A stretch of DNA of 64,000 bases, from assembly GCA_902778995.1 (NCBI GenBank), contig CACYZW010000019.1, positions 3,508-67,507 of the forward strand, written 5' to 3'. Below the pieces are notes generated by a model, which saw only the letters and a list, made by a program, of their open reading frames with translations, was not told the origin of the DNA and ran no database searches. The position numbers were made by a program, and so were the translations under genes. The stretch comes from an uncultured Eubacteriales bacterium. GTDB lineage: Bacteria; Bacillota; Clostridia; Christensenellales; Aristaeellaceae. Below are positions 3,081-64,000 of this stretch, piece after piece. Numbering within the stretch: position 1 is the stretch's first letter; the number at the start of each line of letters is the position of its first letter.

Positions 3081-4775
3081 TCATACCTGTTCCTCCCGCG
3101 CCACCTTGTCCAGGCTGCTTGCGATCCGCCGGGCGTAGTATGTCAACTGACGCACGTCGCAGCCGAACTGCTCCGCCAGTTTGTCGGTATCCGGTTTGGG
3201 CCCATAGACCAGCAGATAGCTGTAGGCCAGCGCCGCCGCGCCGCCGCCGACGCAGCGCACGGGATCCATCGACGTGCCCCGCAGCTGGCGATAGGCCGAG
3301 AAAATCAGCAACAGCTGTGAAAGTGCCGCGATGCCGTATTCCCGTTGGAGCACCTCGTCAGCGTAGCGCACCAGCTGGCGCTCGCCCACGCTCAGGCGGG
3401 CCATCATCGCTTTGGCATCGGGCATGAAGCCGGGGCCGAGGCCCGTCCTTGCGGGCATGATGGCCTCGGAATCCACGCCCTGGAGCCGCAGCACCAGCGC
3501 CGCGTGGATTTTCAAATCGCCCGGAACGCCCTCGTTGAACAGCAGCATGCGCACCAGGCTCCTCGATTCCCGGTGGTCGATGGTCGTCAGCGCGGTCATG
3601 GCGGCGCGGCTCAGCCGCGCGTCCTCCGCCCGGACCGCCCAGGCCATCAGCTGTCGAAAGGCGGGGTCGTCCCGCCAGCGGGTTTCAAGCTGTTCATAGC
3701 CCTGGCCCATCTGCTCCACCAACAGGCGCAGACGGCGCTCAAATTCCCGGCGGGGCACCTGGTAGCCGTAGTCCGGCGCTTCGTCCTTCAACCGCCCGTT
3801 CAAGGCCGCCTCCTGATAGTACTGGGCCACGCTGTCCGACGGATCGATGCGCAGTATGCGCGCCCAGAAGCGGGCCACGCGGATGTCCGGCGTGCCTGTG
3901 CGATTCAGGGCCACCGCCCGCATGTGCAGCAGATCCCGGTCAAAGGGCGCTTCCCGGAGGGCCTTGCGCACGTAGTCCGCCACCTCTTGGTCCATGCCCA
4001 GTTCGCCCATCACGTAGATCATCAGCCGCAGCTCCTGCCCCTCGGGACGCTCCTCCATCGCCCGGGCGATCAGCGTCCGGGCGGTGTGGGCGTCCCCGGA
4101 CATGGCAAACACCTGCGCGCTGACGCACAGCGCCTTCACCGACGGCGGATAACCCCCGGCGGCCTGTCCGGCCTGGGTCAGGGCCTCGTCGGTGCGGCCG
4201 ACGATCAGCAGCGCCATGGCGTACAGGGCCCGCATGTCGTACTGCTCCGAGGCCATGGACAGCGAACGCTCGAACAGGCGGCAGGCCTTTTCGTTCATGT
4301 CCGCCTTCATCGCGTCGCAGGCCCGGTTGGCGATACAGACCGCGCGGCGGAGCTTTCGGTTGACGGGATGGCTGAGCTCGTCGAAAAAAACCAGCTCTGC
4401 GGCCAGGCGCTGAACCTCCTCCAGGTGCGCGCCCTCGGGGTCGCGATGCCGGTACAGGGTCAGCGAGCGCTGCGCGCCGGTGAGGTCGTTCATCCCAAGC
4501 TGATTCAACGCCAGGCCGTAGTAGCACTCCGTGGGCCCGTCGCCCTCCGCCAGCATGTCCAGCAGCAGGCGGGTGGATTGCTCGTGGCAGCCCATTTCGC
4601 AATAGAGCTCCGCCAGATCCAGCCGGTACTCCCGGTTCTCCGGCGCGGCCTCCACCGCGCGGCGCATCAGCTCCAGGGCATCCACGATGTTGTTTTCCCG
4701 CCGGTTCATCATGGCCCGGTGATGCACGTAGGCCGAAGATCGCTTGAAGGCGACGACATTGATGTTGTTTTTCAT
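3081..4775 (-). CDS. TPR-repeat protein
   Basis: The 568-aa ORF was trimmed to MKNNINV (GGGAG RBS). Multiple TPR-like units (ALELMRRAVEAAPENREYRLDLAELYCEMG...). Confidence 0.7.
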   Translation of the reverse strand: MKNNINVVAFKRSSAYVHHRAMMNRRENNIVDALELMRRAVEAAPENREYRLDLAELYCEMGCHEQSTRLLLDMLAEGDGPTECYYGLALNQLGMNDLTGAQRSLTLYRHRDPEGAHLEEVQRLAAELVFFDELSHPVNRKLRRAVCIANRACDAMKADMNEKACRLFERSLSMASEQYDMRALYAMALLIVGRTDEALTQAGQAAGGYPPSVKALCVSAQVFAMSGDAHTARTLIARAMEERPEGQELRLMIYVMGELGMDQEVADYVRKALREAPFDRDLLHMRAVALNRTGTPDIRVARFWARILRIDPSDSVAQYYQEAALNGRLKDEAPDYGYQVPRREFERRLRLLVEQMGQGYEQLETRWRDDPAFRQLMAWAVRAEDARLSRAAMTALTTIDHRESRSLVRMLLFNEGVPGDLKIHAALVLRLQGVDSEAIMPARTGLGPGFMPDAKAMMARLSVGERQLVRYADEVLQREYGIAALSQLLLIFSAYRQLRGTSMDPVRCVGGGAAALAYSYLLVYGPKPDTDKLAEQFGCDVRQLTYYARRIASSLDKVAREEQV

Positions 4776-7426: not shown

Positions 7427-7445
7427 AAACCATCCATGGAAACAA

Positions 7446-7516
7446 AAAATCCTTCGCGATCTCCGGTACGGGGCGCTTGCGCGTCCTGCCCGCCCCGGCA
7501 GAGCGAAGGATTTTAT
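7446..7516 (+). terminator. Long hairpin with T-tail between convergent genes
   Basis: AAAATCCTTCGC (7446-7457) pairs with GCGAAGGATTTT (7503-7514) and is followed by ATTTG. There is internal GC-rich pairing. Confidence 0.4.
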
Positions 7517-10822: not shown

Positions 10823-12184
10823 ATGAAGCATTGTATGCGATTCCTGGCGCTCTTGCTGGCGCTGCTTATCACTGGCTTTGCCGTCGCTGAAGGCGGGTTG
10901 ACCTTTGACGGAAAGATTGAGCCGGAGAAAATCGAAGAGATCGACGCACTGTCCATCGACGGCATGGCGTTGACGATCACGGAGCCGGAGGCTTATTCGG
11001 CATCGAATGCCGAGAGCGTGAAGATCAATTCCGCCAATTTCCCGGACAAAGCGTTCCGAAGCTATGTGAAGGCGCAGTATGACAAGGATGGCGACGGCAC
11101 GCTCTCGCCAAACGAGGCCAACTCAGTCGTTGAGATGTTCATCGGCAGGGATGACGAGCGCTTCATACAGGTGAAGTGTGCGAATATGAAGGGCCTGCAA
11201 TTCTTCCCCAACCTGTCGATGCTGGTGATCGTGCGCTGTCCCGTGAAGTCTCTGGACGTGAGCGAGAACAAAAATCTGAAAGTCCTGATCTGCTGCTATA
11301 GCAACGTGGAAAAGATAGATGTAAGCAAGAACACAAAGCTGGAAGAGCTGAATGTGGGGACCAGCAAGGTTAAGACGCTGAAGCTGGGCAAGCAGAAGCA
11401 TCTCAAAACGCTGGTCTGCGACACCAACAGGCTGACGTCGCTGGATGTGACCAACTGTCCGAACATTACCTACCTACAATGCAACAACAACAAACTGTCC
11501 AAGCTGGACGTGTCGAAGAACACCAAGCTGGACGAGCTGGTTTGCTACGGCAACAGGCTTACAAATCTTGATGTCAGCAAGAACAAGAAGCTGAATGAGC
11601 TGGACTGTTCTGAAAACAAGCTGAAGGCGCTGAATGTAACCGGGAATAACAGGCTGGAGGCCCTGTATTGCACAGACAACCAACTGAAGACACTGGATGT
11701 GACCTCGAATAGCAGGTTGTTGAATCTTTATTGCGGAAACAATCAGCTGAAGACGCTGGACGTGACCAAGAACACGAAGCTGATCGCTCTCTGGTGTGAT
11801 TGCAATCGACTGAAGGGCATAAACGTGACAAAAAACGTGAATCTGGAGATTTTCAACCCCAGCGAGAATCCGCTGGGCAAGCTGGATATCACCAAGAACA
11901 CAAAGCTCCGGTTTCTTGCCTGCGACAGCAGCAATCTCACGACCCTGAATGTCAGCAAGAATAAAAAAATGAGGGTGCTCATTGCCCACAGCAACAAGAT
12001 CAAGAGCATTGACATCGGCAACTGCCCATTTCTGAAGGGATACCTCAAAGAAGACGCCACCATCGACGGAGATCATGCCATCTGGTTCGGAAAGTGGGGG
12101 GATAAAGATGACTTCGACGTGCTTCACATCGATAAGCGCACGAAGCTGATGGACGGGGATAAGGAGCTCTACCCGACCGCATAG
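10823..12184 (+). CDS. Secreted leucine-rich-repeat (LRR) protein with one EF-hand/dockerin-like Ca loop
   Basis: Signal peptide. DKDGDGTLSPNE loop. About 12 tandem 21-residue units of the form DVSKNTKLxxLxCxxNxLTxL. AGGAGG RBS. G+C is visibly lower than in the neighbouring genes. Confidence 0.85.
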   Translation: MKHCMRFLALLLALLITGFAVAEGGLTFDGKIEPEKIEEIDALSIDGMALTITEPEAYSASNAESVKINSANFPDKAFRSYVKAQYDKDGDGTLSPNEANSVVEMFIGRDDERFIQVKCANMKGLQFFPNLSMLVIVRCPVKSLDVSENKNLKVLICCYSNVEKIDVSKNTKLEELNVGTSKVKTLKLGKQKHLKTLVCDTNRLTSLDVTNCPNITYLQCNNNKLSKLDVSKNTKLDELVCYGNRLTNLDVSKNKKLNELDCSENKLKALNVTGNNRLEALYCTDNQLKTLDVTSNSRLLNLYCGNNQLKTLDVTKNTKLIALWCDCNRLKGINVTKNVNLEIFNPSENPLGKLDITKNTKLRFLACDSSNLTTLNVSKNKKMRVLIAHSNKIKSIDIGNCPFLKGYLKEDATIDGDHAIWFGKWGDKDDFDVLHIDKRTKLMDGDKELYPTA

Positions 12185-19018: not shown

Positions 19019-19030
19019 ACAATCCTTTTT

Positions 19031-19110
19031 GAGGAGACACCGCACAATCGAACAGTGCAGCGACGGGTTGAATTTCAGCCGTCACTGCACTGTTCGATTG
19101 TGCGATCTTC
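19031..19110. repeat. Family-1 intergenic palindromic element, copy A (symmetric-arm variant)
   Basis: GAGGAGACACCGCACAATCGAACAGTGCAGCGACGG-GTTGAATTTCAG-CCGTCACTGCACTGTTCGATTGTGCG. About 25-bp near-perfect arms. The left arm matches the termini of copies B, C, D and G. Confidence 0.8.
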
Positions 19111-19112
19111 TC

Positions 19113-21032
19113 TTAATAAATAATGATCACCAGGCTGCCGGGCGCGCAATGCTCGAACAGCCATTTGGCGCTCTTCACAGCAAGGCGCACGCAGCCGTGC
19201 GAAGCCTTGTTGCCCAGGCCATACAGCGAGCTCTCCCGGAGGGTATCGGTATTCCTTTCACTGTAGATGACCGAATGGAACATGATGTCTCCGTCGATCT
19301 CAAAGGAATACCGCGCCCAGCAGTCAAACTTTGAAAAGTGATGCCAGACGTTGACGGGCCCGCCGTCCAGATAGATGCCCCTGGGCGTGGTATTGCCGAG
19401 GCCCGTGGAGCAAAGGAAGGTGTGGATCAGCTCGTAATCGCCGGATTCCTGAAGCTCATACACGTAGACGCGCTGTTTGTCGATGCTCACCTCAACCCTG
19501 TAGGGCAACAGCTTGAAGGCCGCGTCCGGAGAAAACAGCCGGTTCAGCGTCGCGGTATCGGCGCCGCCGGTGGTCGGCAAGCCGTTCGCCGTTTGAAAAT
19601 CCTTCAGCGCGCTCTGCGTCTTTTCCCCAAAGGCGCCGTCTATATTGCGTTTGGAAAGGTAATATAGCGTGTGCAGCCGGCGCTGGACCCGCAAGACCAT
19701 GGCGGTATCGGTGACATTAAACGCCCCGGGCAGATCGTTGAGCAGGCCGTCCGAGAGCAGCTGCTGCGCCTCCACGGACAGCGCCTCGCCGTCATCATAG
19801 GCAAATACCCTCGGGCTGCCAATGGACGCGAGGTATTCGCGCAGCGTCTCGACGCCCTTGACAAGTCCCTTGCCGTATATGCCGTCGGGCATGCTGATGG
19901 TCAGGCCGCCGCAGACCAAAGCCTCCTGAACCTCGCGCACCGCGTCGCCCTCGTCGCCATAGGCGATGGGATGCAGCACGAAGTGCTCCGCCTCAGGCGC
20001 GTCCTGAGCGAACAGCGCGTCGATATACGCCCGGTCATACGCGCTTCCCTCAAGCCCGGCCGCCGTGCGAAACGCCTCTGCCGCGCTGACGGCGTAATCG
20101 TCCATGATGTCGTCGGGCTCGGCGTCCATATAGCCCAGACCGGCCAGGCGACGCTCGACGCGCTTGACCTCGTCGCCCTCGTCGCCGGCGTGAACGTCAT
20201 TCAGATAGGAGGAGTATTCCGGGTCATACAGCGCCAGCAGGGTGACGGCGGTCGCTTCGCCGGAAGGCTCGATGCCCAGAGCCTCCGCCTTGCCCTGCGC
20301 CACAAGATGATTTTGAAAGCGCTTCACCGCTGCGGCGGTCTTGACCCCGTAGCTGCCGTCCGCCTCGCCGCTGAGAAAGCCGTATTGAATCAGCTTCTGT
20401 TGAAGCTCGATGACCGCATCGCCCTTCGATCCCGCGCCCAGGCGCTTCGGCAAAGCCCGCGCGCCGTCGGAAAACAGCACCTCCCGCGTCGCGTCGTCGG
20501 GCACCCCTGTGGCCTCCAGGGCGTGTATGGCCTGGAATTGCCTCATCGCGGCCTGTGAACGCTCGCCAAACGCGCCGTCGGCGACGCCGCGCAGATAGCC
20601 CAGATCGATCAGCCGCTGTTGCAGCGCCTTGACATCCCCCACCTGATCGGCGATTCCGGAAAGCGCCTGCATCGTTTCGTCGTTCAGCTCGCCCGTCTCC
20701 TCCAGGCTGTTTGCGTTCTGAAAGCGCTTCAGGGCGGAGGCGGTCATCGGCCCGTAGAAGCCGTCCGCCGATCCATAAAGATAGCCCAGATCGATGAGCA
20801 TCTGCTGCGCCTGCCGGATCCGCTCCCTCTCCTGTTCCCCATTGTCCTCGGGGGTTGCTTCGCCTTCCACAGCCGCGCTGTCGTCGGTCACCGCCTGCGT
20901 TTGGGTCTGTTCCGTTTCCTGGGCTTCAACCGCGACATCGCCTGCCGTTGGAACCGCCGACTCCGCCACGCCGCCCGCCGTCACAACCGCAAGCGCGGCA
21001 ATTATTGAAATTGTTCTGAAACCATATTTCAT
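19113..21032 (-). CDS. L,D-transpeptidase (YkuD domain) with multiple PG_binding_1 repeats
   Basis: C-terminal YkuD motif GNKASHGCVRL. N-terminal signal peptide. Repeated LIDLGYL..ADG.FG..T..A...FQ units. Confidence 0.85.
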   Translation of the reverse strand: MKYGFRTISIIAALAVVTAGGVAESAVPTAGDVAVEAQETEQTQTQAVTDDSAAVEGEATPEDNGEQERERIRQAQQMLIDLGYLYGSADGFYGPMTASALKRFQNANSLEETGELNDETMQALSGIADQVGDVKALQQRLIDLGYLRGVADGAFGERSQAAMRQFQAIHALEATGVPDDATREVLFSDGARALPKRLGAGSKGDAVIELQQKLIQYGFLSGEADGSYGVKTAAAVKRFQNHLVAQGKAEALGIEPSGEATAVTLLALYDPEYSSYLNDVHAGDEGDEVKRVERRLAGLGYMDAEPDDIMDDYAVSAAEAFRTAAGLEGSAYDRAYIDALFAQDAPEAEHFVLHPIAYGDEGDAVREVQEALVCGGLTISMPDGIYGKGLVKGVETLREYLASIGSPRVFAYDDGEALSVEAQQLLSDGLLNDLPGAFNVTDTAMVLRVQRRLHTLYYLSKRNIDGAFGEKTQSALKDFQTANGLPTTGGADTATLNRLFSPDAAFKLLPYRVEVSIDKQRVYVYELQESGDYELIHTFLCSTGLGNTTPRGIYLDGGPVNVWHHFSKFDCWARYSFEIDGDIMFHSVIYSERNTDTLRESSLYGLGNKASHGCVRLAVKSAKWLFEHCAPGSLVIIIY

Positions 21033-25330: not shown

Positions 25331-25374
25331 GTCGAACACTTCCTTCCCGCGCGACAGGGAGCGCTGAAATTATC

Positions 25375-25543
25375 TTAAGGAAAAACCGCATAATCGAATC
25401 GTGCAGTAACGGGATGAATTTTCGTCAGATGCAAACTGCAAAAACCGCAGGTTACCTGGATTGGTAATCAAGGGTTTTGCAGGCAGCAGGCGGCTGAAAT
25501 TCAGCCGTTCATACACCATGCACATTGTGCGGTGTTTCCTTAA
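25375..25543. repeat. Family-1 element, copy B (about 169 bp, full length)
   Basis: Termini TTAAGGAAAAACCGCATAATCGAATCGTGCAG ... CATTGTGCGGTGTTTCCTTAA. Contains CGGCTGAAATTCAGCCG. Both ends align over about 60 nt with the reverse complement of copy C1. Confidence 0.85.
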
Positions 25544-41408: not shown

Positions 41409-41482
41409 CATGGCAGCGGTGGCGTGAACGCCACCGCTGCACAGGATGTTGACAAAGTCAACAGGCTGCAGGCCGCTGCCAT
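41409..41482. repeat. M2 module repeat (hairpin plus CAGGATGTTGACAAAGTCAACAGGCTGCAGGCCGCTG), bounded by CATGGCAGCGG / CCGCTGCCATG
   Basis: The same 37-nt core recurs inside element D (about 47170-47215) and, interrupted, at 56581-56790. Confidence 0.75.
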
Positions 41483-42432: not shown

Positions 42433-42507
42433 CTTCCTCTTTCACCTGCTCAATCAAGAATGATATATATCGGCGACTGTCCGGTCTGCGACAGGATGGC
42501 CGCTCGA

Positions 42508-42668
42508 TTAAGGAAATACCGCACAATGCTCATGGCGCATTAACGGCTGAATTTCAGCCGCCTGCTGCCTGCTGATTTCTTGACTTGCCGCCAGCAAGCC
42601 TTCGAAGTTTGCAATCGACTAAAATTCATCTCGTTACTGCACGACTCGATTATGCGGTATTTCCTTAA
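42508..42668. repeat. Family-1 element, copy C1 (about 161 bp, inverted relative to copy B)
   Basis: TTAAGGAAATACCGCACAATGCTCATGGCGCATTAACGGCTGAATTTCAGCCGCCTGCTGCC ... CGTTACTGCACGACTCGATTATGCGGTATTTCCTTAA. Confidence 0.85.
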
Positions 42669-42723
42669 GGAAACGCCGTACACGGCGCATCGACGGCTGA
42701 ATTTCAGCCGTCCGCCGCCTGCA
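42665..42723. repeat. Family-1 half element, copy C2, abutting C1 through a shared TTAA
   Basis: TTAAGGAAACGCCGTACACGGCGCATCGACGGCTGAATTTCAGCCGTCCGCCGCCTGC, which aligns with the first approximately 60 nt of C1. Confidence 0.75.
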
Positions 42724-42745
42724 AATGCCCTGCCTTGCCACCGTC

Positions 42746-47041: not shown

Positions 47042-47115
47042 TGCCAAAAGGCATTTGTCCGGGGCCCCTTGAATTGGCTCCGCGAGCCGGCTTCCCCTGA
47101 TGGCGAGCCGGGGAA

Positions 47116-47392
47116 TTAAGGAAACGCCGCATAATCGAACGGTACAGCAGCAGAACGTCCTTCAGCCGTTTGCTGCTGTCAGGATGTTGACAAAGTCAAC
47201 AGACTGCAGGCCGCTGAAAAAGGCTGCAAGGCAAGGCGGCGAGCCTGCAAAAAAGGGAGTTTACCCCGTCGTAAATCTTCCGCTCTTCTTTCGGAAGGAT
47301 TTTCTGCGTTTGCGGCCTTTGTCAGCGGTCTGACTGCAGCAGAACGGCCTTCAGCCGTCTGCTGCTTTATCCATTGTGCGGCGTTTCTTTGG
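47116..47392. repeat. Family-1-related composite element, copy D (about 277 bp), carrying the M2 module
   Basis: Left end TTAAGGAAACGCCGCATAATCGAACGG. Right end CCATTGTGCGGCGTTTCTTTGG, which is its inverted complement. Internal hairpins plus CAGGATGTTGACAAAGTCAACAGACTGCAGGCCGCTG. Confidence 0.8.
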
Positions 47393-50496: not shown

Positions 50497-51156
50497 TCAA
50501 CACCCCTGCTCGCAGAACGTCGCCATCTCCCTTTCCAGCAGTCGATACACATTGGCCACCAGATACCCGTCCGCGACGGCGTGATTCAGCCGAACGGTGA
50601 CGGGCATCATCAGCCTGCCGCCCTCCTCGCGGTAGCGACCCCAGTTTACGATTGGTATATAATAGGGATAGCCGTCGGGAAGCTCGATGTTCAGCGCGTC
50701 GTAGGAAAGCCAGGAGATATAGGAGGCATCGAACCAATTCGGATGGTTTGCCGCGTCAAGGGCATATCCCCCCGTCTCCTTCGCCCGCTCCAGGTCTTCC
50801 AGCGCATGCCTGTAGAACGTCCCGTAGTCGGCGTAATAGCAGGTATACACCGGCGTACAGGTCTCCGTCTCCTCGTCGAAAACATACTGCGTGGGATTGA
50901 TCACGTCATAGCAAATCAGCTGGTCGGTCTGCCACAGATAGCCCATCCGATAGTCGTCCCTCGAATTCAGAACCTTCGACAGCAGGTACAGGAAATTCAG
51001 ATAGAACTTCGTACCCGTTTTTCTCGAGCGCTCGACCAGCGCGGTCACGTCGATCCTCGCCGTCATGGAGGTCGAGCATTTGCAATCCTCCGTGAAGTGG
51101 CGGAACACACCCCGCCGATAGTAGGTATTCAAATCAACAATTCGGTAGTCGGCCAT
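50497..51156 (-). CDS. cat: Type-A chloramphenicol O-acetyltransferase (CAT) family protein
   Basis: 219 aa. NHAVADGY in the place of HHAVCDG, so the second (catalytic) His is retained. CAT-like N-terminus (DLNTYYRRGVFRHF). GGGGAGAAAAA RBS. Confidence 0.75.
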   Translation of the reverse strand: MADYRIVDLNTYYRRGVFRHFTEDCKCSTSMTARIDVTALVERSRKTGTKFYLNFLYLLSKVLNSRDDYRMGYLWQTDQLICYDVINPTQYVFDEETETCTPVYTCYYADYGTFYRHALEDLERAKETGGYALDAANHPNWFDASYISWLSYDALNIELPDGYPYYIPIVNWGRYREEGGRLMMPVTVRLNHAVADGYLVANVYRLLEREMATFCEQGC

Positions 51157-51221
51157 TTTTTCTCCCCTTCTTTACCGTCAATACGACGGAACGCAGGGGC
51201 ATTGCAGCCCCTGCGCCCTAT

Positions 51222-51317
51222 GGAAGCACCGCATGACCGCATCGTGCAGCAACGGGATGGATATTCATCGATTTCAAGCTGCAGATTCAGCAGGCCTGGC
51301 GGTTATGGTGTTTTTCC
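51222..51317. repeat. Family-1 element, degenerate copy E
   Basis: GGAAGCACCGCATGACCGCATCGTGCAGCAACGGGATGGATATTCATCG... ...GGTTATGGTGTTTTTCC. The left half aligns with the left half of copy B. Confidence 0.65.
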
Positions 51318-51383: not shown

Positions 51384-53639
51384 TCACGGCGTATAGATGT
51401 GGCTGATGGCGATGACCTTGCCGTTTTCGATGGTCGCCGTGGTATTGTACTGGTCAAAATCAGCGCCGTCGCCGGAATTGGTGATGGCCCCGACGATGTC
51501 CTTGCCCCGTATGATGAAGGGAATCTTCTTCGGGTCGGAGGCGTCGGTATACGTGGCGGATTCATCGACCACCAGCGTGGTGACGCCCTGCTCGGTGTAG
51601 GTCGCCAGATCGTCGTAGCCCGCCACGCGGTATGCGCCGGTATCCTCGTCCATCCACAGCACCACGCCGTTATCCCCGTCCAGGCCGCCGTTTATGGTCA
51701 CGGCACTGTCCCTTTCAACGGACTTAACCCCTATGGTCTCGCCCGCCACCAAGATGCTGTCGCCGACCTTCAGCGCGTCGATCTCCGCGGCGTCATACTG
51801 ATCCTGTGTGAAGACGTGCACGGCGTTCAGATAGATGCCCGACTTGCCGGCAAAGACGTCGCCCGGATCAAAGGCCACCGGCCACGTGCCGTCGGCCAGG
51901 CGGCTCACATCCACGTTGCGGGCGATGGGCGATACCGTTTTGACCTCGGGGACGCTCTCGTTTTCAAAGGAAACGGTGTTGCTCAGCCACTTTTCCCCGT
52001 TCTTGTCGTAAATCGCCAATGCCGCGAAATTCAGGTTGCCCTCGCCCCAATCCATGTCGACGGTAAAGCTGCCCGAGGCGCTGTTGGCCGCGTTTGCCCT
52101 CAGATCCACGCCGTCGAGCACCATGACCATGTCCTCCGATTGGAAATCGGGCTTCTCACCGAAGGTCAGCAGCAGCGCCGTAAAGGTGCAGCGCGCGCTG
52201 CCCAGGTTGGTCAGCGACCAGCTGTAGGTCACCATGCCACTGTCATCGGCCTTGTCTGCGGGCGTGACGGTCAGCGCAAGGTTCACGGGGCTATTGCCCT
52301 TGCTCTTGCTCTTGCCCTCGCCCTTCCATGCCTCGGCGGGCTGGATATCCAGCCAGGCGTTCACCACCGCGTCCACGTCGGCGGGGCGAATGACGCCGTC
52401 CTGCGCCACCAGCTCGTTATCCGCGGCGAAGGATGCAAAGGCCGTGTCCAGCTTTTTGCCGTAGATGCCGTCAAAGCCGCCCGCGTCGTAGCCCAGCTGC
52501 TTCATGATCTGCTGCATGGCGCGGATGTCCTCGCCCCGGCGGCCCCGCTCGAACCAGGGCTGCGGCTCGATGGCCTCGCGCTGCTCATAGCCGCAATCCC
52601 TGCAAACGCGAACGCGCTCGCCGGCCTCCGTGCGGGTCATCTCCTTCACGGTCTGCCAGGGGCCGAAATCATGGTTCAGGCGCTTGATGGTCTGGGGCCA
52701 GGCGACGCCGTCCGGCTCGAGGCCCTGATCCTTCTGGAACTGCGTCACCGCCTTCTCGGTGCCGCCGCCGTAGACGCCGTCCGCGCCGCCAGCATTCAGA
52801 TAGCCCTGATCCACCAGCTGCTGTTGCAGCGCGCGCACCTCGTCGCCCCGATCGTTCCTGCGCAGCGTGCCCTTGGGGTCAAAGCTCTCCTCGCCGCCGT
52901 TGTAGCCGCAGACCTTGCAGATCTTTGCCCGCACGCCCGCAGAGTGGTCGGTGGTCTTTTTGATGACCTTCCATTCAAACTCGTGGGGCAGCTTGTCCAG
53001 AACCTGTTCTTCCTCGTAGCCGCAAACCTTGCAGCGGCGCACGCGCAAGCCGGTCTCGGTGCAGGTGGGCTCCTCGGTCACCGTCCACTTGCCGAACTCG
53101 TGGTCCGCGTAGTAGTACTCCTCCTCCTCGTAGCCGCAGATCTTGCAGGTGCGAACCCGCTCGCCCTCCTCGACGCATGTGGCCTCCTCGACGATCTTCC
53201 ACTTGCCGAATTCATGCTCCAGCATCGGAAGCCGCTCCGTCTTCGTCGTGCCGCAGACCTTGCAGGTGTGCTCGCGCTCGCCTGTATGGGTGCAGGTAGG
53301 CTCGTCGATCACGCGCCATTTGCCCCACTGGTGCTTGCAGTACTTCGGGGGCATCTCGTCCGCCAGGTACTTGGTCAGCACCCAGGCCTCCATCTGCCCG
53401 CCGTGCTTGGTATCTTCCAACAGTATGGATGTATACTTGCTGCCCAAAAGCAAATTCCCGCTGAGCATGACCTTCGTGCCGCCCTTGAGCTTCTTGACGA
53501 CCTTCGAGTCCGGATCCGGTTCCTTGTGGGCTTCGAGAACGTCCTTGTTGACAAATTTCACGTACTCGCTGGCGCACGCCGGAATCGCCAGCGCAACCGC
53601 CAGCACCAGCGCCAGCATACACGCGATGAACCTCTTCAT
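51384..53639 (-). CDS. Secreted protein: SH3-like N-terminus, five Cys-containing repeats of about 35 aa, two PG_binding_1 domains, unknown C-terminal half
   Basis: Signal peptide. Repeats H-x-[FW]-G-x-W-x-[VI]-x2-E-x-T-C-x3-G-x-R-x-R-x-C-K-x-C-G. LQQQLVDQGYL..ADGVYG and MQQIMKQLGYD..FDGIYG units. GGGAGGAATGAGG RBS. Confidence 0.8.
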   Translation of the reverse strand: MKRFIACMLALVLAVALAIPACASEYVKFVNKDVLEAHKEPDPDSKVVKKLKGGTKVMLSGNLLLGSKYTSILLEDTKHGGQMEAWVLTKYLADEMPPKYCKHQWGKWRVIDEPTCTHTGEREHTCKVCGTTKTERLPMLEHEFGKWKIVEEATCVEEGERVRTCKICGYEEEEYYYADHEFGKWTVTEEPTCTETGLRVRRCKVCGYEEEQVLDKLPHEFEWKVIKKTTDHSAGVRAKICKVCGYNGGEESFDPKGTLRRNDRGDEVRALQQQLVDQGYLNAGGADGVYGGGTEKAVTQFQKDQGLEPDGVAWPQTIKRLNHDFGPWQTVKEMTRTEAGERVRVCRDCGYEQREAIEPQPWFERGRRGEDIRAMQQIMKQLGYDAGGFDGIYGKKLDTAFASFAADNELVAQDGVIRPADVDAVVNAWLDIQPAEAWKGEGKSKSKGNSPVNLALTVTPADKADDSGMVTYSWSLTNLGSARCTFTALLLTFGEKPDFQSEDMVMVLDGVDLRANAANSASGSFTVDMDWGEGNLNFAALAIYDKNGEKWLSNTVSFENESVPEVKTVSPIARNVDVSRLADGTWPVAFDPGDVFAGKSGIYLNAVHVFTQDQYDAAEIDALKVGDSILVAGETIGVKSVERDSAVTINGGLDGDNGVVLWMDEDTGAYRVAGYDDLATYTEQGVTTLVVDESATYTDASDPKKIPFIIRGKDIVGAITNSGDGADFDQYNTTATIENGKVIAISHIYTP

Positions 53640-55389: not shown

Positions 55390-56514
55390 ATGGAAAAGGC
55401 AAGGGTCTATTTCACCGATTTCCGAACCCGCACGGGCGTCAGCCAGGGGAAAAAGCTGCAAAAGCTGTGCCGGGCCGCCGGCATCGGCGATATCGACTTT
55501 GAAGGCAAGTTCACCGCCATCAAGATGCACTTCGGCGAGCTGGGCAATTACTCGTATCTGCGGCCCAACTACGTCAGGGCCGTGGCCGATCTCATCCGGG
55601 ATCTGGGCGGCAGGCCCTTTCTGACCGATTGCAACACGCTCTACCCCGGCAGCCGCAAGAACGCCCTCGACCACCTGACCAACGCCGAGCTGAACGGCTT
55701 CAACAGCGTGACCACCGGCTGTCACGTGATCATCGCCGACGGCCTGCGGGGCACGGACGACATCGAGATTCCCGTTCCCAACGGCGAATACTGCAAGACG
55801 GCCCTGGTGGGCCGCGCGCTGATGGACGCCGACGTGCTGATCTCCCTGAGCCACTTCAAAGGCCACGAGATGACAGGCTTCGGCGGCGCGATCAAGAACA
55901 TCGGCATGGGCGGCGGCAGCCGCGCGGGCAAGATGCACCAGCACCACGAGGGGACGCCCCGGGTGGACACGGCGCTGTGCAAGGGCTGCAGGCGCTGCGC
56001 CCGGGAATGCGGCAGCGACGCCATCAGCTATTCGAACGGCAAGGCATATATCGATCCCGCACTGTGCAAGGGCTGCGGGCGCTGCATCGGCGCATGCGCC
56101 TTCGACGCCATCAGCAACGTCAACGACGGCGCATGCGAAACCCTTTGCTGCAAGATGGCCGAGTACACCGCCGCGATCTGCCAAGGCAGGCCGTGCTTCC
56201 ACATCAGCCTGATCATGGACGTATCCCCCAACTGCGACTGTCACGACGAAAACGACGCGCCGATCCTGCCCAACATCGGCATGCTGGCCTCCTTCGACCC
56301 CGTCGCGCTGGATCAGGCCTGCGCCGACCTGTGCCAGAAGGCCGAGCCCATCCGCAACAGCCAGCTTGGCGACAACCTGGCGCGCCCCGGCTGGCACTGC
56401 CACCACGACCACTTCTTGGACAGCAATCCCAACGTCCATTGGAAGGAGACCCTGGCCCACGGCGAAAAGATCGGCCTGGGAACGCGGGAATATGAGCTGG
56501 TGACGGTAAAATAG
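55390..56514 (+). CDS. DUF362-domain protein with two 4Fe-4S ferredoxin motifs
   Basis: DUF362 pattern (FLTDCNTLY, ISLSHFKGHEMTGFGGAIKNIGMG), plus CKGCRRCARECG and CKGCGRCIGACA. Confidence 0.8.
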   Translation: MEKARVYFTDFRTRTGVSQGKKLQKLCRAAGIGDIDFEGKFTAIKMHFGELGNYSYLRPNYVRAVADLIRDLGGRPFLTDCNTLYPGSRKNALDHLTNAELNGFNSVTTGCHVIIADGLRGTDDIEIPVPNGEYCKTALVGRALMDADVLISLSHFKGHEMTGFGGAIKNIGMGGGSRAGKMHQHHEGTPRVDTALCKGCRRCARECGSDAISYSNGKAYIDPALCKGCGRCIGACAFDAISNVNDGACETLCCKMAEYTAAICQGRPCFHISLIMDVSPNCDCHDENDAPILPNIGMLASFDPVALDQACADLCQKAEPIRNSQLGDNLARPGWHCHHDHFLDSNPNVHWKETLAHGEKIGLGTREYELVTVK

Positions 56515-56580
56515 TTCCCCATTTACGGCATCTGTGGCGGCGGCGATATGCCTTCGACGCGGCAACCGACAGATGCCGCC

Positions 56581-56790
56581 CAGGATGCAGACAAAGTCAT
56601 ACTGTTCTCAGTAAATGTAAAAGATCCTTCGCTTCGCTCGGGATGACACCGATACGCTTGTCAGACTGAGCAGCGCGAAGCGGAGTCGTGGCCGCAGGCT
56701 TGGCGAAGCGTCAGGGATCTTTTCTATTTCTTAATTGGGAACTGTATCAACAGACTGCCAGAGGGCTGAAAAGCATCACCGCATAGCAAA
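56581..56790. repeat. M2 module interrupted by a nested element
   Basis: CAGGATGCAGACAAAGTCA | insert | TCAACAGACTGCCAGAGGGCTGAAAA, compared with the uninterrupted CAGGATGTTGACAAAGTCAACAGRCTGCAGGCCGCTG at 41446 and 47171. Confidence 0.75.
56600..56746. mobile_element. Family-2 MITE-like element (147 bp) flanked by a TCA direct duplication
   Basis: Imperfect TIRs of about 40 bp: TACTGTTCTCAGTAAATGTAAAAGATCCTTCGCTTCGC at the left end, and GCGAAGCGTCAGGGATCTTTTCTATTTCTTAATTGGGAACTGTA at the right end. TCA at 56597-56599 and at 56747-56749. There is no coding capacity. Confidence 0.6.
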
Positions 56791-56834
56791 AGCGCCCCTG
56801 CGACATTGACTGTCGCAGGGGCGCCTTTGCTATG
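56783..56834. terminator. Bidirectional terminator hairpin
   Basis: CATAGCAAAAGCGCCCCTGCGACA-TTGAC-TGTCGCAGGGGCGCCTTTGCTATG (24-bp arms, one mismatch). Confidence 0.8.
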
Positions 56835-56842
56835 GCTTTCGA

Positions 56843-57280
56843 TCAAATCTGGGGCTCGGCGTCGTTCTCCAGCGCCACGTTCTCCACGGAGCGAATGGCC
56901 CAGCGGGCGATGACGATGGTATTTTGCAGCGAACCCATGGTCAGGGTGACGGTGTCGTCCTTGAGGGCCGCGATGGTGCCGTACAGGCCGCCGATGGTGC
57001 AGATCCTGTCGCCCACCTTCAGGGCGGACAGCATGTCCTTCACCTGCTTGTCCTTCTTGCGCTGGGGACGGATCAACAGGAAGTAGAATATGGCGACCAT
57101 GGCCACCATCATGACGACGGTGCTGATCAGGCTGCCGGTACCGGCGGCGGCATTGGCCGCAGCGGCTGTGCCGTCGGCGGCGGTTGCGGCGGCGCCCGTG
57201 GCGGCAGCCGCGGCTTCACCGGTGGCGACGGTAACGGACTGATTGGCCTCGGCCAACAGATTTACAAAATTCATGAACAT
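56843..57280 (-). CDS. yajC: Preprotein translocase subunit YajC (with an Ala/Thr-rich N-terminal extension)
   Basis: FYFLLIRPQRKKDKQVKDMLSALKVGDRICTIGGLYGTI is the YajC signature. AAAGGAGAA RBS. Lies downstream of tgt. Confidence 0.85.
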   Translation of the reverse strand: MFMNFVNLLAEANQSVTVATGEAAAAATGAAATAADGTAAAANAAAGTGSLISTVVMMVAMVAIFYFLLIRPQRKKDKQVKDMLSALKVGDRICTIGGLYGTIAALKDDTVTLTMGSLQNTIVIARWAIRSVENVALENDAEPQI

Positions 57281-57397: not shown

Positions 57398-58543
<1,146 letters not shown>

Positions 58544-59582: not shown

Positions 59583-59645
59583 GCTGAAATTTTGGAGACT
59601 TGCCGGGGGGCAAATGCGCCATGAGCATTGTGCGGTATTTCCTTT
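59583..59645. repeat. Family-1 half element, copy F
   Basis: GCTGAAATTTTGG...GCGCCATGAGCATTGTGCGGTATTTCC matches the right halves of copies G and RC(C1). Confidence 0.65.
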
Positions 59646-63816: not shown

Positions 63817-63841
63817 ACGAACCGTTTGAGGGGTCGTCTCA

Positions 63842-63924
63842 GGGAAACACCGCGTGATCGAATCGTGCAGCAAGCGGCTGAAATTCAGCCGTTAACGCGC
63901 CATGAGCATCGTGCGGTGTTTCCC
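63842..63924. repeat. Family-1 element, copy G (minimal 83-bp form)
   Basis: GGGAAACACCGCGTGATCGAATCGTGCAGCAAG-CGGCTGAAATTCAGCCG-TTAACGCGCCATGAGCATCGTGCGGTGTTTCCC. This equals copy C1 or B without the internal section of about 75-85 bp. Confidence 0.85.
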
Positions 63925-64000
63925 TATAGTCATACAAGTAGTTACTGCTCAGGGTTCCCCTTTCCAATCGGGGGCGGCGGCGTGTACGCCGACCCCGCAG

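Follow-up and report, generated by a model that had tools for sequence, protein, structure and literature searches.

A small palindromic element nested within an intergenic repeat module of an uncultured rumen Clostridia genome

We analyzed a stretch of 64,000 nucleotides from an uncultured rumen Clostridia bacterium (GenBank assembly GCA_902778995.1, contig CACYZW010000019.1, positions 3,508 to 67,507), called the window below, in which a short intergenic repeat module, M2, is present twice in an intact form and a third time split by an insert at 56600-56746. This third copy of M2, starting at 56581, carries a nested insertion, and the insert is a real nested hairpin element of a known kind, similar to a miniature inverted-repeat transposable element (MITE) or to a REPIN, a doublet of repetitive extragenic palindromic (REP) units. 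We favor, with moderate confidence, the view that a transposase provided in trans inserted the element and duplicated a short stretch of the target, probably 3 bp. As a trace of small mobile DNA, the insertion is real but rather unremarkable, and it makes a small point in itself: in an uncultured rumen Clostridia genome, intergenic repeats arise by the nesting of one element within another.

A third copy of the M2 module interrupted by the insert

The M2 module is 37 nt long, and its 23-mer CAGGATGTTGACAAAGTCAACAG was found exactly at 41442-41464 and 47180-47202 and nowhere else in the window (0 in 100 shuffles). The two intact copies, which represent paralogous 'empty' sites, lie on the + strand at 41442-41478, between the convergent peptidase M20 and LD-carboxypeptidase genes, and at 47180-47216, where the module adjoins a half copy of the TTAAGGAAAC... 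repeat family. A preliminary description of this DNA had recognized both of them, with coordinates (41446-41480 and 47171-47207) off by 2-9 nt. At the third site, the left part of M2, CAGGATGcaGACAAAGTCA (56581-56599, + strand), matches the intact copies at 17 of 19 positions and ends with TCA (56597-56599), and the right part, TCAACAGACTGCc (56747-56759, + strand), starts with the second copy of this TCA (56747-56749). Once 150 nt were taken out of the site, M2 was restored at 26 of 28 positions, with CAGGATGCAGACAAAGTCAACAGACTGCC as the predicted empty-site junction. The left arm of the M2 palindrome (56588-56589) reads GCAGAC in the interrupted copy and GTTGAC in the intact ones, the palindrome having decayed in the former.

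With the two intact copies masked, we searched the window for split matches to M2 in which the split could fall anywhere, with an insert of 30-3000 bp, 0-10 duplicated base pairs and at most 3 mismatches. The site at 56581 was the only split match, with 2 mismatches over 28 nt, and none was obtained in 60 first-order Markov simulations of the window. The splitting of a third M2 copy by a 147-bp insert, as proposed in the preliminary description, can be read directly at this site. Moreover, all three copies of M2 share the same context, 3' of a + strand gene, with a hairpin of unrelated sequence followed directly by CAGGATG... on the + strand, which indicates that the third module is truly interrupted. 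Upstream of the split copy, an inverted-repeat scan and a three-way alignment placed this hairpin at 56526-56578, with a 10-bp stem (CGGCATCTGT/ACAGATGCCG) and a 33-nt loop. No match to M2 was observed in viral contigs.

The same filled site was present in two assemblies from other samples, represented by contigs L001 and L002. L002 and the window share 9.5 kb without any difference, and L001 belongs to a different strain, with 6 single-nucleotide polymorphisms (50593-50668) and a 43-nt indel in comparison with the window. Neither an orthologous empty site of the DUF362-yajC locus, in which the insert lies, nor an orthologous uninterrupted module in related strains was found: the exact DUF362 protein is carried by three contigs only, all of them filled, and the next homologues are at most 88 % identical, the two contigs examined (P0002 and P0009) having no yajC downstream and other neighbours. 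The earlier claim of filled and empty sites within the window therefore holds for the presence of two uninterrupted modules, although these are paralogous and not orthologous to the filled one.

Two further observations concern the L001 contig. Its 43 extra nucleotides (GACCGCATTTTGCAGGCGACGCCAACACAGCAAGCAGAAAATC; L001:100-142, window 47276/47277) have AAAT at both edges and complete a perfect hairpin made of an A-run, a stem and a T-run (GAAAATCCTTCCG-9 nt-CGGAAGGATTTTC). The contig itself starts at window position 47178, 2 nt ahead of the second M2 copy, and this assembly break beside M2 fits with M2 being a repeat in that genome.

Anatomy of the insert and its homologues in another rumen lineage

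The inserted palindromic element (56600-56746) measures 147 bp when TCA is counted as a duplication, and up to 150 bp otherwise. Its ends read TACTGTTCTCAG... and TACAGTTCCCAA..., and it consists of two A/T-rich terminal inverted arms of ~30 nt around a head-to-head pair of REP-like units, (T/C)GTCATCCTGAGCGAAGCGAAGGATC. The A-end arm, TACTGTTCTCAGTAAATGTAAAAGATCC (56600-56627, + strand), comprises the terminal inverted repeat and an A-rich stem foot and is common to L006 and L019, two homologues described below; the B-end arm, GGATCTTTTCTATTTCTTAATTGGGAACTGTA (56715-56746, + strand), comprises the terminal inverted repeat and a T-rich tail and is kept in L006, L019 and L022. Of the two units, GATCCTTCGCTTCGCTCgGGATGACA (56623-56648, + strand) has a single mismatch to a 25-mer found across taxa, and its inverted partner, TGTCAGACTGAGCAGCGCGAAGCGGAGTC (56659-56687, - strand), detected by the inverted-repeat scan, is degenerate and aligns to the single unit of the L006-type elements. 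The tags of the two units face each other across a 10-nt spacer.

As previously described, the insert has imperfect inverted termini (TAC[T/A]GTTC...AAAAGATCC...CGCTTCGC), which match at 32 of 38 aligned positions with 2 indels over ~44 columns. The insert folds as a single long imperfect hairpin (DNA z = -4.4; 0 of 200 shuffles as good), and its predicted RNA fold reaches z = -4.85 and -60 kcal/mol on the + strand, and z = -3.07 and -45 kcal/mol on the - strand. In agreement with the preliminary description, no open reading frame (ORF) of at least 50 amino acids was found in the insert, with stops in most frames; a six-frame concatenate compared to 5.8 billion proteins returned nothing at E ≤1, and no Rfam family matched the region, either at gathering thresholds or with E relaxed to 10. 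With 147-150 bp, no coding capacity and terminal inverted repeats that reach its ends, the insert has the size (under about 300-500 bp) and the termini of a MITE. A second copy within the 64-kb window was not found; a match to its first 13 nt at 2020, on the - strand, sits in a zinc-ribbon-like coding sequence and was rejected as chance.

A scan of metagenomes with the A-end pattern yielded one true relative, L006 (JGI contig Ga0310691_10636978), at an unrelated intergenic locus. Two other matches to this pattern (L005 and L007) were attributed to chance, and the A-end and B-end patterns gave chance matches only in viral contigs. The L006 element has the same termini, in inverted orientation, and beyond the searched pattern its anchored alignment to the insert reached z = 7.4, with 0 of 5000 shuffles as good. 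It lacks 39 nt of the window insert, corresponding to one REP-like arm and the spacer. We fetched the orthologous spacers of its relatives via the 76-amino-acid gene adjoining the L006 element, and observed the element at this locus in L019 (neighbour protein 93 % identical) and in L022 and L023 (74 %). No M2 surrounds the element in L006, L019 and L022. Between L006 and L022, the element is 81 % identical, as is the adjoining coding sequence, and the spacer on its other side is 34 % identical. Judged from this pattern of conservation, the element at the L006-group locus is old and vertically inherited, and has apparently been kept. Recent mobility is not established, the element being vertically inherited in this other lineage and conserved to the same degree as coding DNA.

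Overall, the element is a discrete unit present in different organisms at two or more loci that are not homologous to each other, and this distribution speaks for past mobility. The absence of any other copy of the element or of its termini, which the preliminary description had named as decisive against its proposal, was not observed, since the L006 homologue carries the same termini in an unrelated intergenic region. The proposal of a second non-autonomous element stands as regards a discrete non-coding unit, and not as regards a multi-copy family in this genome, with one copy in 64 kb. Likewise, the multiple dispersed copies that characterize MITEs were not found in the window and ~0.47 Mb of fetched related DNA, which is a weak test as it does not span the whole genome; within these ~0.47 Mb, no copy was detected besides the L006-group orthologous locus.

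Other relatives of this locus were rearranged. In L011 (10244-10301), and likewise in L012-L018, a relative of the element is cut exactly at the hairpin apex, after ...GGAATCGTA; unrelated DNA follows, and the gene downstream is another one. This truncation looks like a palindrome-associated rearrangement. An IS66 element without similarity to the insert lies ~2.6 kb from the truncated relative in L011. In L020 (597-676) and L021 (1042-1121), the orthologous spacer (neighbour protein 91 % identical) contains no element and has another hairpin, AGAGTGTGTTTCTAA...TTAGAAACACACTCT, only ~10 nt (TGCTGTTCAT) recalling the left end of the element. Among the L011-L023 relatives, no clean empty site was found at the L006-orthologous locus, and the duplication therefore could not be read there.

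A reverse history can be proposed, in which the ancestral repeat combined M2 with the hairpin and slippage between the TCA repeats removed the palindrome from the ancestor of the 'intact' M2 copies. Instability is a known property of long palindromes, which are lost by deletion between short direct repeats, and TCA-palindrome-TCA versus a single TCA is the exact outcome of a slipped-strand deletion. The nearby hairpin region with its 43-nt AAAT-bounded strain indel and the break of L011-L018 at the apex also point to such hairpins being prone to rearrangement. However, the element is found without M2 in L006, L019 and L022, and M2 is found without the element twice. As each of them exists alone, they behave as independent units and an insertion needs fewer events; we thus consider the reverse history improbable.

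Core unit, junctions and possible routes of mobilization

At its core, the insert contains a REP-like unit of 25-27 nt, GATCCTTCGCTTCGCTCAGGATGACA, present as a pair in head-to-head orientation, a feature missed by the preliminary description. The unit can be written as TGTC-ATCCTGAG-CGAAG-CGAAGGAT-C, with a tag, an AT start and a 5-nt loop; however, it pairs at only 6 of 8 stem positions, and its tail differs from CCA. As in a REPIN, the two inverted units (56623-56648 and 56659-56687) lie head to head and form a larger hairpin. The high copy number of REPINs and the gene for a REP-associated tyrosine transposase (RAYT), which accompanies the GTAG REPs, were not observed: the unit occurs once in the window, and no Y1 transposase was found there.

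We scanned representative genomes with the pattern AAATRKAAAAGATCCN{2,4}CGCTTCGC, derived from the conserved part of both arms; the genome of the window itself was not matched. Matches were obtained in L003 and L004 only, as simple core hairpins. In L003 (rumen Clostridiales RUG311; 3870-3927), the doublet lies between convergent genes and folds as a perfect hairpin (AAAAGATCCTTCGCTTCGCTCAGGATGACA-7 nt-GTCATCCTGAGCGAAGCGAAGGATCTT), and L004 (a Bacteroidales metagenome-assembled genome; 5910-6080) contains single arms and variants of the unit. Each arm is a mini-hairpin by itself. An exact 25-mer, GATCCTTCGCTTCGCTCRGGATGAC (= GATCCTTCGCTTCGCTC(A/G)GGATGAC), was present in L003, in L004 and in at least 24 IMG/VR viral contigs (L024-L047) of 47-69 % G+C with unrelated flanks, and diverged variants were detected in cyanobacterial plasmids. 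In several of the viral contigs, the unit is in frame inside long ORFs, and some of the genes that carry it in frame are essential ones. The homologous proteins of L035 (3203-4051) and L042 (112-921) have an identical 25-mer and diverged flanking codons. In the terminase large subunit of L037 (1-1431), the comparison with a 53 %-identical homologue revealed a 32-amino-acid in-frame insertion (...CS-HPERSEGS...SFAGAQDD...) that corresponds to a unit doublet; a second insertion in L037 consists of tandem PPPLRGTPLINAGGK repeats. In an MmeI-type gene of the Planktothrix agardhii plasmid p1 (L058), variant doublets are arranged in tandem and in frame. Literature searches with nucleotide strings or encoded peptides of the 25-mer returned nothing relevant, the description that comes closest being that of the CGTC-tagged REPs, and a crude motif screen of 26 loci detected no GIY-YIG genes beside the core units.

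The 25-mer core, identical across phyla and phage contigs and tolerated in frame, is of wider interest than the insertion itself. The insert may represent one vehicle of a cross-phylum, sequence-specific mini-element, or a site written or maintained by some conserved enzyme, a proposal that we regard as doubtful. If a cross-phylum mini-element does exist, the window would provide a rare insertion junction, readable base by base, of such a unit with its carrier arms, which is the type of evidence needed to learn how these units move.

The spread of the core 25-mer over unrelated contexts also speaks against a non-mobile origin, in which the hairpin would be a two-way terminator that evolved locally, with M2-like flanks by chance, or that was acquired by recombination with neighbouring sequence. 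Hairpins of the same style are indeed present in this genome (7444-7516 and 47277-47310), and the element is single-copy in the DNA examined. Nevertheless, the split M2 match is far beyond chance, and the unit, including its A/T-rich arms, is common to an unrelated locus in another organism. An assembly artefact at M2 is unlikely as well, three independent assemblies being in agreement. A non-mobile origin thus appears highly improbable.

Regarding the junctions, an insertion of 150 bp without duplication, of 149 bp with 1, of 148 bp with 2 or of 147 bp with 3 duplicated base pairs fits equally. TCA does flank the insert on both sides, as stated in the preliminary description; a 3-bp target-site duplication is not established by it, since 0-3 bp fit. 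With 3 bp, the inverted termini start exactly at the junctions, which is the usual signature of cut-and-paste transposition. A TA duplication of the IS630/Tc1-like type, with TA as the first and last two bases, was rejected, as it needs a pre-insertion M2 with 5 extra nt.

In the mechanism that we favor, a small non-autonomous palindromic element (56600-56746, with or without the flanking TCA) would have entered the 3' arm of the M2 palindrome GTTGAC-AAA-GTCAAC by the action in trans of an enzyme whose gene lies elsewhere. A cut-and-paste DDE transposase making a 3-bp staggered cut at TCA, which is a site of the TNA type, would be the most natural candidate, since the junctions then coincide exactly with the start of the inverted termini. 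TCA agrees with the TNA-type site of the IS1031 group of IS5 or of PIF/Harbinger; the duplication length is 0-3 bp, and no such transposase was found in the window. Using Pfam, we did not detect any transposase or recombinase in ~43 scanned ORFs of the window, which are housekeeping genes of a spore-forming Clostridia-like organism, or in the remaining genes called on L001. The IS5-like or Harbinger-like parent suggested earlier did not gain support, with no transposase in the window and no matching end of an insertion sequence (IS) in plasmids and phages. A related autonomous IS with the same termini, as known for MITEs, was not found in the window, L001, plasmids, phages and viral contigs.

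Several observations weigh against an insertion by such a transposase. First, the duplication may have any length from 0 to 3 bp. Second, L006 and L019 have TCA before the left end and TGT after the right end, and L022 has AGA and TGC at these positions; the old copies of the L006 group may have decayed at their flanks, or TCA may be a preferred target or a part of the element. Third, no transposase was found in the window and the neighbouring contigs, and the search of plasmids, phages and viral contigs for an IS with matching ends gave chance-level matches or nothing. Fourth, a single insertion can be evaluated, and its 'empty' sites are paralogues. Finally, the element was found once in the 64 kb and not again in the fetched DNA, and the strict exact-match scans of public genomes and metagenomes gave one independent locus only. 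As these patterns were strict, the absence of further copies is weak evidence.

An alternative route is that of a REPIN-like hairpin moved as single-stranded DNA by a tyrosine enzyme (HUH/Y1, RAYT or IS200/IS605-type) without duplication. In this case, 150 bp would have been inserted, and the TCA of one side would belong to the element or be the recognised target. The core is a head-to-head tagged pair (TGTC/CGTC, stem from AT, 5-nt loop), which is the organisation described for CGTC-tagged REPs, and the junction fits a duplication of 0 as well as of 3 bp. In addition, TCA precedes the left end in the window and in L006 and L019, where 14 nt (TCATACTGTTCTCA) are identical, and TCA is absent at the right flank in the L006 group. 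However, the terminal 13-nt identity of L006 was imposed by the search pattern, so that only 3 extra nt are independent (a chance of 1 in 64), and L022 has AGA in place of TCA. The A/T-rich inverted arms of ~30 nt reach the very ends of the insert, whereas IS200/IS605-type elements have no long terminal inverted repeats. Moreover, no Y1 transposase was found in the window, and the CGTC REPs have no dedicated transposase according to Di Nocera et al. (PMC3733652). We consider this route rather unlikely, and we retain the transposase acting in trans as the favored explanation.

The insert can be compared to several known systems. The Correia elements of Neisseria are bacterial MITEs that act as terminators; they are present in hundreds of copies per genome and duplicate TA. 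Like the insert, they are non-coding elements of 100-160 bp with terminal inverted repeats that form one long hairpin, and they are intergenic, often at the 3' ends of genes, with a very short target duplication and possible effects on termination or RNA processing. Unlike them, the insert has one copy per 64 kb and a TCA repeat of 0-3 bp, no parent IS was found for it, and the sequences are unrelated.

Some IS target extragenic palindromes, such as IS1397 and ISKpn1 in the bacterial interspersed mosaic elements (BIMEs) of enterobacteria, or members of the IS110 family in Pseudomonas REPs. Their landing inside a short palindromic intergenic repeat, the resulting nested structure and a duplication of 3-4 bp or none recall the present case. 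However, these IS are autonomous, 1.2-1.5 kb long and have a proven preference over many sites, whereas here a 147-bp non-coding element occupies one of three M2 copies.

Rickettsia palindromic elements (RPEs) are confined to Rickettsia. They resemble the core unit by their presence in frame in protein-coding genes, as in L037, L035, L042 and the Planktothrix MmeI-type gene; unlike them, the window copy is intergenic, and the sequences are unrelated as far as can be told. RPE-4 and RPE-6 have been assigned to the CGTC REPs (Di Nocera et al., PMC3733652).

In the same paper, the tagged REP unit of the GTAG and CGTC superfamilies is 20-40 nt long, with a terminal CGTC/TGTC (or GTAG) tag, an 8-9 bp stem starting from AT and a 4-5 nt loop (PMC3733652). 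The CGTC-tagged REPs have a CGTC/TGTC tag, stems from AT and 4-5 nt loops, and form head-to-head dimers; they lie downstream of genes between convergent ORFs, with copies inside genes and no dedicated transposase, in phyla including Bacteroidetes, Chlorobi and Spirochaetes (Di Nocera et al., PMC3733652). With its two inverted (T/C)GTC-tagged units of 25-29 nt arranged head to head, the insert core resembles in outline the REP doublets or REPINs (PMC3116915) and the GTAG- and CGTC-tagged REP superfamilies (PMC3733652). It also shares with the CGTC REPs, as they are described, a position downstream of genes between convergent ORFs and relatives inside genes (PMC3733652). REPs and REPINs are usually abundant and species-specific; the unit of the insert is rare in the window, yet its 25 nt are identical across very different organisms and viral contigs. 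Unlike REPs and REPINs, the core of the insert travels with additional terminal inverted arms, which are A/T-rich and ~30 nt long.

Genomic setting, terminator-like shape and further repeats of the window

The insert sits in the 329-nt spacer between the convergent DUF362 (+) and yajC (-) genes. The DUF362 gene, encoding a 4Fe-4S protein (55390-56514, + strand; from the ORF listing and from Pfam on the identical gene of L001 and L002), has its stop 66 nt before the split M2. On the other side, gene calls place the convergent yajC (145 amino acids) downstream at 56843-57280 on the - strand, with tgt beyond it (57398-58522). All the copies of the element, in the window and in its relatives, lie between convergent genes.

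The stem foot of the insert, AAAAGATCC...GGATCTTTT (also AAAAGATCC...GGATCTTTTCTATTTCTT), has an A-run on one side and a T-run opposite, and a terminator consensus scan flags 56699-56715 followed by GATCTTTTCT at the 3' side of the insert. Compared with a canonical terminator, the stem is much longer and has more interruptions. From this shape, which the preliminary description had also missed, the probable role of the insert is that of a two-way intrinsic terminator. Placed between convergent genes, its long stem would serve either as such a terminator or as an RNA-stabilising hairpin, which would explain the retention of the homologue in the other lineage. Against this role, the terminator function is predicted from shape, and the number of compensatory base-pair changes across four element sequences is 0. 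The case suggests that a hairpin element can supply a terminator-like structure between convergent genes.

Outside the insert, a separate strong hairpin at 56782-56834 (- strand), with 24-bp arms that are 96 % complementary and followed by a T run on the - strand, is the probable yajC terminator. Other hairpins of the window have the same style as the foot of the insert. The hairpin AAAAAATCCTTCGC...GCGAAGGATTTTATTT at 7444-7516, between a HAD hydrolase gene and cbiC, has an A-run, ATCCTTCGC and a T-run, and is probably a two-way terminator judging from this arrangement. A further one, likewise with an A-run, an ATCCTTC stem and a T-run, is located at 47277-47310.

The first repeat system of the window forms a palindromic family whose ends read TTAAGGAAACACCGCACAATG... 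and whose centre is a GGCTGAA(A)TTCAGCC hairpin, with internal insertions in part of the copies. Its copies were located at 19027-19120, 25373-25542, 42506-42742, 47114-47162, 51216-51264, 59613-59642 and 63837-63926. The half copy at 47114 is joined to M2, and a likeness to the family's central hairpin is seen in the hairpin that precedes M2 at 41413-41440. Together, the first repeat system and M2 have a mosaic, BIME-like organisation.

Finally, we observed two tandem repeats in coding sequences of the window: a 63-nt leucine-rich periodicity at 11244-11907, in an LRR_4 protein (10823-12184), and a repeat of ~115 nt on the - strand at 52579-53337, in a PG_binding protein (51384-53639).

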